A stretch of DNA of 64,000 nucleotides from an uncultured archaeon (GTDB lineage Archaea > Asgardarchaeota > Thorarchaeia > Thorarchaeales > Thorarchaeaceae), in contig CAZLEV010000010.1 in the NCBI GenBank assembly GCA_964558645.1, positions 68,623 through 132,622 of the forward strand. The letters are read 5' to 3'. The notes under the pieces were generated by a model. That model saw nothing but the letters and a program-made list of their open reading frames with translations, searched no databases and was not told where the DNA came from. This document shows positions 58,286-64,000 of this stretch, in pieces (positions within the stretch are counted from its first letter, which is position 1; each line of letters starts with the position of its first letter). A program made the position numbers and the translations under genes.

Positions 58286-61200
58286 CTAGGTCTCACTGAT
58301 TCTCTCACGAAGGTGTCGAGCCTCATCCAGCAGTTCTCGTGCCGCGTCCTCCTGCCATCTTGCGACATACCGCTCCAGTATCTCGATGGCCTCGTCGACG
58401 GAGTCTGCTGCCGTTGCATGACTGCCCTCCTCCATCTCAAGTCGAGCTAGTCTGACCAGTATGTCGACCAGATCGTATTCCCGTGCCTCGTCGCGCTTCG
58501 CGGCCTCCCTGAAGAACTCCAGTTGCATCTCGAGTCCCTCCATGTCGTCGGCCCTGTCCCTCATGCCCCTGACCTTCACGTTGAAGAGCCATTCGTGGAG
58601 CCTTTCCATGAGGCTGTCGAGGTCCTGCACGCAGTCCTCGGGTTCCGTGTTCTCGTCGTAGTACTCCTGCACCGCTCCCTTGAGACTCTCCTCTGCGAAA
58701 GCGGTGGCTGCTGCAATGTCCATCTCATCGGGTTTGCATTGCACCAGCACTCTGTTCACCTTCTTTCCCGTGATGCTGGAATACAGGAAGATGAACACGT
58801 GGTCATTCCTGGCGCTGAACTCCCAGAGAAGTTCCTCACTGTCCATGAAGAGATAGGAGCCGGGCCTGACCGAGGGCAGCCCCAACGCCTTTGCGATGCG
58901 CCATGACTCGCGAAAGGCAACTCCCTCTCTACTCTGAGGGTTGTGCTCGCACTGGATGCTCAATCTATACCTGCCCCGTTCGAAGATGATCTCACCAGCG
59001 GAGAGCAGGCTTACGATGTCGGTCTCGGAGAGGGGAGTGCTGCACAGAGCAACCAGGTCGGGGTCCCTGCAATCGTCGTCCAGGCTGACTCTCCAGCAGT
59101 CGCCGTGGGCATCCGCGCTCCCGTCTGCCAGGGGACAGAGGGACGCATCGTGGTGGATGATGACCTTGATCTCTCGAACAGGGCGCCTGGCCAGTTCCTG
59201 TGCCGTCCTGGGGAGAGGGACCTCCACATGGACGTAGGGCCACTTCCGTTCCACGTATGGCCGAAGGAGCTGGAGTTGAGAGTAACTGATGTTCTCGTAC
59301 GGATTCCAGGTCATGAACCGGTTCGGGATGGATGAATGGGGGACCGGCAGGCCGTCCACGAGGGGTCTTCGGAGCAGCTCGAGGAGTTCCGCAGTGCTGG
59401 TGGTCTTGAAGGTGTCCACAGCCTTCCGGTCGGACTCGAACTCGACCAGGTACTGACCCGATTGGACAGACAGGCCACACTCGACCTCGACGACCCTGCT
59501 CTGCATCGCTGCCAGCCGCCTCAGTTCTTGCCGGGCCCTGCCCTGTAGTATCTCGGGCTGGTGGACGAACCTCGGGACATCATCTATCGAGCCATCTCCC
59601 ACCGGGTCGAGTTTCACTCCCCAGACCCGCGTGAGGGCATTACGTCTCCGCGGTATCATCTGGAACTGGCCCAGCAGCAGCCATTCTCCCTCCTCCGTAC
59701 GGGTCCACATGTAGTCGATCCCCCTGACCTCTGCCACTACCAGGTCTTGAACCGACTCGGGTTCGCTGACGTCTGCGTACTCGGTGATGACGCTATGGTC
59801 CATCTCGGACCACCGCATCGTAGACATCAGGGAGAGGGGATGTCTTCCGAGAAACAGCCCACTGATCAGCTCATCGCCTCTGTACTTTCCCTCGAGGAGC
59901 AACCAGTGGCCGAGCTCAGCATCCCCGGTGACCGTCCACAGCTGACCGAACCGGACTGAGGTCTGTGCGGGTGCTGGCATCCGGGACAGGCCCGAGAACC
60001 GCCTGCAGAGATTGTGGAATATGGCGCGGACCTGGAACTTTGACTTTGATACTGTTTCCGAGACCTTCTCTGGCACATAGAACCCGAGATGTTCGAGTTG
60101 CCACGCCTTGACAGTTTCCCAGAGCAGTTGAAGAGTCTTCTCGCCTATCTCCTCCTCACGGACCACTGCAAGGAGCAGGAGGAAGAGGTAGTTGCCGTAG
60201 GTCGTGCTCAGGTCTGGACGGGTTTCCAACAGCTTGTCGAGACTCTTTCTCTGCTCAAGTCGCAGACCTCGGGCAAGCATCCTCTCCCGCATCCAGAGCA
60301 GTCTTTCCCAGAGCCCCTTTGACACCTCCCTCTCTGCAAGCGTTTCACTCACTTGCCGAGCGATATTCCGTCCTGCTCTCTTTACTGAGACAAGCTTCTT
60401 GAGGTAATCTAGGAGTGCCATGAACTCCGCATCCGATTTCGATCTCCCTTGCTTCCTGAGAACACGGATGACCTGCCTGAGCCTCTTCATTTCCAGTTCC
60501 GCAGCCATATACTCATCAAAGTCCCGGTGCTTCATGAGGACCTCGTCTGGTGAGCGGGAGCTATGCCTGACCTCCTCGACCTTGGGCGGCTTCTCTCGCC
60601 TGTAGTGTCGTTGCGACTTAATCTTCTTCTCAAGTTTCCGGGCAGCTTCGGAGGGGTCCCACTTCTCGTCTTTGTCATCCTTCCGCCGCGCCCGGTAGCT
60701 GACCCGCGAGAGGACTCCGGGGCCCTTTGATGGCTTGCCAAAGAGGGGTATCACTTGCAGACTGGCCTTTGCCGCCTTCGACTTTGGAACAGTCGGTTGC
60801 GCGTTGTCGGGATACAGTCTTTCAACCCAGGGGAGGAGCTCATAGGCGGTGTTGATCAGGTCGATTGCCAGAGCCCTGTCCTGCACAGCATCCTTCGGTG
60901 TGAGCCTGCGCCCTCTCCAGACCCTTCGCTGTTTCCTCCTTCTCTTGGTGAACTCCCCGTTGAGTTTGCTCGACCACTCCTCAAGAGGGGGGATCTCCAG
61001 GAGCTGATGGCTCACCTCACCCGGGGTCAGTCTGATGTTCACCCGCAGATCGTCAAGCATCGAGGAGTAGTGGTGCACAGCATAGGGTCTGACCGGGACG
61101 TTGTAGACAATCTCCTTCACAAAGTGCCTGTGTGGAGAGTCGTTATCGAAGGGGACCAGTGTGGAACAATGATAGGTGGCTGATGTGAATTCATCCCTCT

Positions 61201-63704: not shown

Positions 63705-64000
63705 ATGGGTCGTTCGAGCGGTACGATGGTCACGGTAAAGGTCCCGGTGAACTGGGAAGCCATGACTACACGACAGAGAGAGCGTCTTGACAAGATGACC
63801 CGCCGTGACACGCGGGTGATCAAGGCGTATCTGGGTGTGATCGAGCGACACGAGGAGGAGCTCCTGTATGGAAAGAGGAAGAAGCGGCTGGATGCCGGTG
63901 CCTTGGACGAGCTGACCCTTCGGACCGATACAAGGAATACTGTAGCTCATGACTTCAAGGAGCGGTTCCCGAACATCTCAACCAACGAGTTGCAGGAGTG
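63705..64000 (+). CDS. tnpB: Second TnpB copy, N-terminus only (runs off the window; absent from the ORF track)
   Basis: MGRSSGTMVTVKVPVNWEAMTTRQRERLDKMTRRDTRVIKAYLGVI...HDFKERFPNISTNELQE, clearly homologous to the 8193 N-terminus; GAGGAG SD. Confidence 0.9.
   Translation, partial: MGRSSGTMVTVKVPVNWEAMTTRQRERLDKMTRRDTRVIKAYLGVIERHEEELLYGKRKKRLDAGALDELTLRTDTRNTVAHDFKERFPNISTNELQE

Follow-up and report, generated by a model that had tools for sequence, protein, structure and literature searches.

A giant gene for a Cas1-like protein, divergently paired with a tnpB gene and located next to the 16S rRNA gene, raises the question of what such a pair of genes moves and how it selects its site. The window, i.e., the whole 64,000-nt stretch of DNA analyzed here, comes from the genome of an Asgard archaeon (G000). 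The initial annotation described a 1721-aa ORF (58286-63451, minus strand), a divergent tnpB that starts at 63705 (plus strand) and a gap of 253 bp between them, and this layout was recovered in our analysis.

The giant aCas1 protein and its divergent TnpB

55790..58150, plus strand: archaeal 16S rRNA gene, putative target and insertion neighbor (Rfam RF01959 at 55790-58067; anti-SD end at about 58150)
58286..63451, minus strand: giant aCas1 gene, 1721 aa (from the ORF, alignments and fold searches)
63705..64000, plus strand: tnpB, 5′ part (562 aa in full once the two contigs are joined)

The aCas1 type of protein was reportedly described by Makarova in 2020. Sequence searches of Pfam and the PDB returned nothing for the giant protein, and its domains were seen by fold search only: a Cas1 helical domain (aa 1-240), a PD-(D/E)xK-like domain (aa 340-510), a RecA-fold domain (aa 590-823) and a conserved C-terminal part, with no usable Atlas match for aa 930-1430. 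Cas1 motifs had been read at the N-terminus, and the predicted model of aa 1-250 (pLDDT 94) bears this out, its 12 best matches being all Cas1 or casposase (Z 13.3-9.2, rmsd 3.2-3.9); the next unrelated match reached Z 6.0, and Foldseek on the same model was in weak agreement (E 0.009). This region covers the helical catalytic domain alone, i.e., residue 1 of the giant protein aligns to about residue 85-115 of Cas1 chains, and the N-terminal β-strand dimerisation domain is absent. Invariant residues in the N-terminal alignment were E69, R73, H157, D168 and R171. From the E76/H157/D168 set named in the initial annotation, H157 and D168 are thus retained, but E76 is not conserved; it was rejected as a catalytic residue, and the E76A control once suggested would change the wrong residue. 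Since E69 is invariant and E76 variable, E69 is likely the catalytic glutamate of aCas1. The PD-(D/E)xK motifs that had been recognized also hold, with E376, D389, K419, Q474 and Y478 invariant, and the fold itself gave weak leads only (0.84-0.88). As annotated, aa 590-823 has a RecA/Rad51-paralogue/KaiC fold (Z 11.9-10) with a broken Walker A, whose lysine is missing throughout the family, so that the ATPase activity of this domain is doubtful.

The end of the window is the end of contig C10, and its only overlap is one of 55 nt, unique in the assembly, with the start of contig C28; we infer the join from this overlap of the assembly, not from reads. The joined tnpB encodes a 562-aa TnpB that aligns over its full length with relatives (up to 68%). 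The absence of a CRISPR array that had been noted is true of the window, but tnpB continues on the adjoining contig, where a guide mini-array of three units follows it. The active site comprises the RuvC D229, a G that replaces the usual RuvC-II E, an alternative E386 and D420; the catalytic D, the alternative E and the second D are invariant across TnpB relatives, and the C4 zinc finger is conserved. Judged from these residues, the protein is a TnpB of the RuvC-II rearranged-site type, which is predicted to be active (PMC10691335).

Homologues of the giant gene carry Thorarchaeota names. The family is present in 27 of the 36 genomes of the host's family, and in 1 of about 124 other genomes of the phylum that were searched. 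The same genome harbors five further giant-gene paralogues, four adjoining a tnpB. The presumed linkage to TnpB was found at every giant-gene locus with an intact 5′ side (24/24 with a divergent tnpB); from the side of the nuclease, a divergent aCas1 accompanies 52/79 TnpBs, about a third of TnpBs being solo, and the co-divergence of the two proteins is weak (Mantel rho 0.23). The giant gene ends about 135 bp past the 16S gene, and its closest homologues lie at ≤1.5 kb from 16S in six other genomes. The element genes have a GC content of 57%, vs 50% for the genome. In one other genome (G006:C23; L029/L043), two divergent tnpB genes and a mere C-terminal remnant of the giant gene were seen beside 16S. 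The guess that this architecture might already be known proved right: Altae-Tran 2023 catalogued aCas1-associated TnpBs in Asgard archaea (Cas1H-Asgard-1/-2) together with the GTTCACTCA motif (PMC10691335), so that the pairing is not new.

Repeat-guide units, their 16S targets and the introns that interrupt them

C28 (L249), about 1252-1257, beyond the window: anti-repeat CCGACC
C28, 1473: GTTCACTCA motif, downstream of tnpB
C28, 1498: guide 1, 10-nt match, decayed repeat
C28, 1538: guide 2, 12-nt match
C28, 1589: guide 3, 16-nt match, intact repeat
57841..57870, plus strand: 30-nt BHB intron at site A, 9 nt into the target of guides 1 and 2, which it breaks
57907..57935, plus strand: 29-nt BHB intron at site C, within the TAM of the D site, a target of related elements
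58051..58080, plus strand: 30-nt BHB intron at site E, which breaks the seed of guide 3's 16-nt target
58113..58144, plus strand: 32-nt BHB intron at site F, which breaks the site that the F guide of related elements targets

The units located 3′ of GTTCACTCA consist of an 8-nt repeat and a variable stretch, have irregular lengths (40-75 nt), and in this locus the repeat is intact in one of the three. A hexamer in the tail of tnpB, about 220 nt further 5′, is complementary to the repeat, and anti-repeat and repeat change together (CCGACC/GGTCGG, AAGACC/GGTCTT, ATGACC/GGTCAT and CCGATC/GATCGG), with 18 strict 6/6 pairs vs 6.3 when permuted (maximum 13 in 1000). In the ISDra2 ωRNA, the last scaffold bases pair with an upstream segment just before the 16-nt guide (PMC10097598, PMC13565253), and an equivalent pairing would fix the start of the guide here. 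The published catalogue regarded the variable stretch 5′ of GTTCACTCA as the place where a guide might lie, but left the guide open and named no target (PMC10691335); we rejected this stretch, which lies inside a stem, the anti-repeat pairing setting the scaffold end further downstream. The GTTCACTCA copies were also rejected as terminal inverted repeats of the whole element, the giant gene being outside them. A loose pattern search in 86 genomes was too noisy. About 14 ωRNA-only mobile copies (about 180 and 580 bp), which stop where the scaffold stops and in some cases have CTAG on both sides, were observed in G000 (C2, C4, C5, C6, C9, C13, C15, C16, C17 and C26). In addition, an SDH/ClpP-like protease gene follows the guide array (L249:1724-2887), and a similar gene follows the array in L033, L035 and L041.

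Guides 1-3 match the antisense strand of the 16S gene over 10, 12 and 16 nt, each match lying behind CGGAT, and guide 3 is an exact 16-nt match to the intron-less 16S that starts directly after the repeat. These matches appear only when four inserts of 29-32 nt are removed from this 16S gene. The guides of relatives point to two further 16S sites, behind AGAAT and CGGAT, and each of the four classes of 16S guide has GGAT or GAAT upstream. Elsewhere in the genome, no target of 12 nt was found for the 16S guides. Unanchored 10-mer matches to 16S were not significant (23 vs 15), and hence anchoring by the repeat is needed.

All four inserts form 4/4 central-helix pairs, in one register only, i.e., a 4-bp central helix between two 3-nt bulges, and by this structure they are BHB introns. 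The intron sites are filled or empty variably among 27 alleles, the site A intron being missing from other alleles, and no source of the introns was found elsewhere in the genome. Intron E lies in the binding site of the common 1492R primer, so that full-length 16S surveys may overlook alleles of this kind. Other inserts were seen as well: a 30-nt one at another 16S site in L093, and in the window a large 16S intron (56670-57410) encoding a LAGLIDADG protein (56729-57409; Pfam PF14528), i.e., a classical homing intron.

At the ten loci with both an array and an allele, 18 of the 21 guide sites were blocked in cis by an intron or a seed change, whereas the expectation is 9.4 when all alleles are drawn on (p 0.0002) and 14.2 when only element-linked ones are (p 0.003); with hand-coded site states and related genomes, these p-values overstate the case. 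The three unblocked sites had a 12-nt match only or a mismatch at position 1, and every guide of at least 14 nt with a known linked allele was blocked in cis. Own-genome matches of 12-14 nt exist for some guides (L118, L126, L047, L190 and own C26), and introns are present too at sites without a guide in the linked array. This association, drawn from sequence, suggests that the introns would make the linked allele immune to a nuclease that may cut the empty site.

Self-guide, sister clades and traces of movement

63578..63596, plus strand: upstream TATA-like site P1, with TAAT and then an exact 13-nt copy of the self-guide (63584); predicted autoregulatory target
63611..63689, plus strand: predicted small RNA, with a hairpin carrying TGAGTGAAC (63646), the repeat CAGGTCGG (63669-63676) and a 13-nt self-guide (63677-63689)
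6418..8193, minus strand: solo tnpB of the sister clade, whose guide matches the adjacent mvhD-like gene (5798-6208)
58225..58290, plus strand: 16S trailer, which recurs four times on C28 (joined positions 79419, 88547, 90227 and 90713)

The 253-bp gap, which had been called structured, indeed folds better than its shuffles (z -3.07), and this structure is a fourth repeat-guide unit, whose 13-nt self-guide overlaps the tnpB TATA box. A self-guide of 10-17 nt that starts exactly at the repeat boundary was found at 68/86 loci, vs 0.6% of shuffles. Its flank is TAAT in 12/12 loci of the 16S clade and TCAT in 7/7 loci of the mvhD clade, which is independent support for a NAT TAM. Since a self-guide that directs cutting would destroy the element, binding without cleavage is the expected outcome, and the self-guide probably serves in autorepression of the element's own promoter; repression without cutting would also explain the 12-nt matches tolerated in cis. 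A plain promoter duplication is the alternative, but it leaves the exact boundaries unexplained.

The TnpB clades were taken from a quick tree, in which every clade has its own fixed neighbor gene. The sister clade resides beside mvhD, and its guides are directed to the conserved cysteine motif of this gene. The guide of the solo tnpB in the window has three mismatches with its own mvhD-like gene, at synonymous positions, and all nine linked alleles of this clade carry 2-4 mismatches, whereas alleles of other genomes match over 11-12 nt; with few mvhD haplotypes, this pattern alone is only suggestive. Among the other guides, 16/45 match a tRNA gene with ≤1 mismatch in 12 nt (one being a miscalled end), vs 4/135 shuffles, and the TAMs of these targets are less consistent. 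The initial proposal of homing or targeting in place of a TnpA is supported as to homing or targeting, with adjacent host 16S, mvhD and tRNA genes as the targets, and no Y1 or serine TnpA was found in the G000 genome, which is 93% complete. A second aCas1-paired TnpB type, of about 720 aa, was observed in G000 (C2:25231-27387, C6:134003-136159 and C16:1-1554), and its guides are similar, though with mismatches, to the tRNA-His, -Lys and -Ile genes alongside. In L186 (about 9750-9950) a tnpB of the same family seems to end beside the 23S rRNA 3′ region, possibly another target class. ARAGORN run without the intron option found only 21 tRNAs in G000, which suggests that many tRNA introns of this genome are at unusual positions.

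The trailer copies on C28 are decayed, and each is followed by remnants of the 3′ end of the giant gene; the cargo downstream of the array is a defence-type island with restriction-modification and similar genes. Many genomes have downstream islands with tandem direct copies of the 16S 3′ end plus trailer, some of them followed by remnants of the giant-gene C-terminus. As measured in 24/24 cases, the displaced 16S ends begin at site E or ≤20 nt downstream, with no common sequence to their left. There are no terminal repeats and no casposon-type duplication; conserved ends are absent and the junctions vary over 20 nt. Read from their arrangement, the tandem displaced ends are a record of repeated insertion. 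They fit a break near site E that was repaired by homology on the 16S side and joined without homology at the other end, and Campbell-type integration of circles carrying a 16S end fits too. In L041 the displaced older 16S ends hold an intron that is missing from the current end, so that 16S ends appear to be replaced together with the elements.

Candidate mechanism, rival readings and known systems

The reading that we favor, and hold to be fairly probable, is that of a selfish RNA-guided homing element that resides 3′ of 16S, with intron immunity and with aCas1 as the enzyme that joins DNA ends; the element probably spreads by cutting rival copies while its own copy is spared. TnpB and its ωRNA would bind 5′-NAT-flanked sites in the last ~220 nt of 16S, and the extra guides would be repeat-guide units that use the same anti-repeat, a pattern visible in the sequence from which binding is presumed. 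Guides of at least about 14 nt would cut intron-less alleles met after DNA exchange, and the BHB introns would break the seed in the linked allele, the host splicing endonuclease removing them from the RNA. Repair via 16S homology on one side would copy intron, element and cargo, and the other broken end would be joined without homology, so that the old 16S 3′ end is displaced downstream; by its Cas1, nuclease and RecA-fold domains, aCas1 would most likely perform this joining. A self-guide of 12-15 nt would bind the upstream promoter without cutting and might thereby limit expression.

A tentative alternative, which can coexist with homing, is that aCas1 acts as an adaptation enzyme, joining TAM-adjacent host DNA to the ωRNA repeat to form new guides, and possibly inserting the 30-nt introns. 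It would account for the invariance of the Cas1 triad, for the exact length of 30 nt of the introns at sites A, B, D and E, and for L119, where an entire displaced 16S 3′ end is fused to the repeat with the junction precisely at the TAM boundary; moreover, in one genome three 30-nt hairpin inserts stand in tandem at an additional site (L094/L232, the 16S 3′ end of G021). It is weakened by the missing N-terminal dimerisation domain and Cas2 partner (Cas2 is not at the locus, and the only Cas2 match of the genome is on another contig beside a canonical Cas1), by the 8-nt repeats and irregular unit lengths, by an array that arose by recombination between ωRNA ends (L063), and by the lack of an intron source elsewhere in the genome. 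The canonical cas1 and cas2 of G000 (C4:109177-110415) are apart from the aCas1 loci. A bolder and rather unlikely version is a TnpB-directed aCas1 integrase that both writes guides and inserts 30-nt BHB introns at guide-specified sites, i.e., a proto-CRISPR gene drive, which if true would also explain the origin of short archaeal rRNA and tRNA introns.

It is unlikely that the system is CAST-like, with a non-cutting TnpB that recruits aCas1 for integration downstream of conserved genes and with introns that are incidental or confer target immunity. Many guides match over 10-14 nt only, each TnpB clade keeps its fixed neighbor and some cis targets are intact, as such a system would have it, but the TnpB catalytic residues are invariant, targets on both strands over 200 nt define no single insertion point, terminal repeats are absent, and the guides of at least 14 nt are all blocked in linked alleles. 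Still less credible is host escape, whereby introns and synonymous changes were selected after arrival of the element and do not travel with it: introns in alleles without a linked element and target point mutations (L032, L043 and L094-L096) would be expected from it, yet guide sets and intron sets correspond locus by locus even when only element-linked alleles are compared, and the intron in the displaced L041 ends is one that the current end lacks. Finally, an ordinary casposon-like transposon, in which an IS1341-type tnpB is a passenger and its guide mere flanking DNA, follows the published reading of aCas1 as a transposase and agrees with the flank-like guides of some relatives and with the ωRNA-only copies, but is very improbable, and for the 16S clade largely refuted, by guides in several units that match a gene 7 kb off on the opposite strand and by the lack of polB (no family B DNA polymerase was found among the ORFs scanned on C28), of terminal inverted repeats and of a short target duplication.

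For the favored homing element, the closest working analogy would be collaborative homing, here RNA-guided. As with free-standing homing endonucleases and collaborative homing in phages (PMC10448857), a nuclease gene resides beside a conserved gene without discrete ends, the nuclease target is the intron site, the linked allele is immune and intron and nuclease spread together, all of which is read here from sequence alone; unlike the phage cases, the system resides on an archaeal chromosome, would be RNA-guided and multi-target, and would involve BHB introns of 30 nt and a partner with the Cas1 fold. With IS200/IS605 TnpB homing (ISDra2; PMC10097598, PMC13565253) it shares a scaffold that overlaps the gene 3′ end, pairing just before the guide, a 5′ TAM ending in AT and a guide of about 16 nt, but here the guide is not the flank of the excision site (16S is 7 kb off, on the other strand), there are several guides and no TnpA was found, and immunity would come from introns or recoding of the host gene. 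Cas1H-Asgard elements have in common the Asgard host, the diverged Cas1 adjoining tnpB and GTTCACTCA downstream of tnpB; unlike in their published description, the guide lies further downstream, begins behind an 8-nt repeat, is arrayed and matches neighboring host genes.

Casposons have in common with this element a Cas1-fold enzyme (6opm, Z 10.9) and a preference for stable-RNA genes; the element differs from them also in having no N-terminal Cas1 domain. The label 'proto-type-V' from the initial annotation suits the RNA side (repeat, anti-repeat and mini-array), but the guides aim at host housekeeping genes and not at invaders. As in type V CRISPR-Cas and the TranC intermediates (cited in PMC13565253), there are repeat/anti-repeat pairing, several guides and a Cas1 homologue beside the effector, but the repeats have 8 nt (vs about 25-37 nt in regular arrays), the units are irregular and the guides would address host genes and the element's own promoter. 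The self-guide recalls Cas9 tracr-L autorepression (cited in PMC8730458) and TldR repressors in that a short guide matches a promoter beside a TAM, but here it stands beside a TnpB with intact catalytic residues; no description of self-guide autorepression for TnpB was found in the literature searched. The same holds for targets, arrays and introns of aCas1-TnpB, subscription papers being mostly uncovered by that search. Hence, this is a known but unexplained gene pair, for which the specific, testable mechanism was not found in the literature searched.

The catalogued aCas1-TnpB loci thus gain concrete guides, TAMs and targets that are testable at once. The locus would represent a natural state between a single ωRNA and a CRISPR array, with one scaffold, several repeat-guide units and an adjacent Cas1 homologue, an intermediate on the path by which type V systems are proposed to have originated. 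For the ORF-less mini-introns in archaeal rRNA it suggests a selective advantage, and the self-guide suggests that an active TnpB may either repress or cut, depending on guide length. Should the joining be done by aCas1, it would represent a novel type of RNA-directed DNA insertion.
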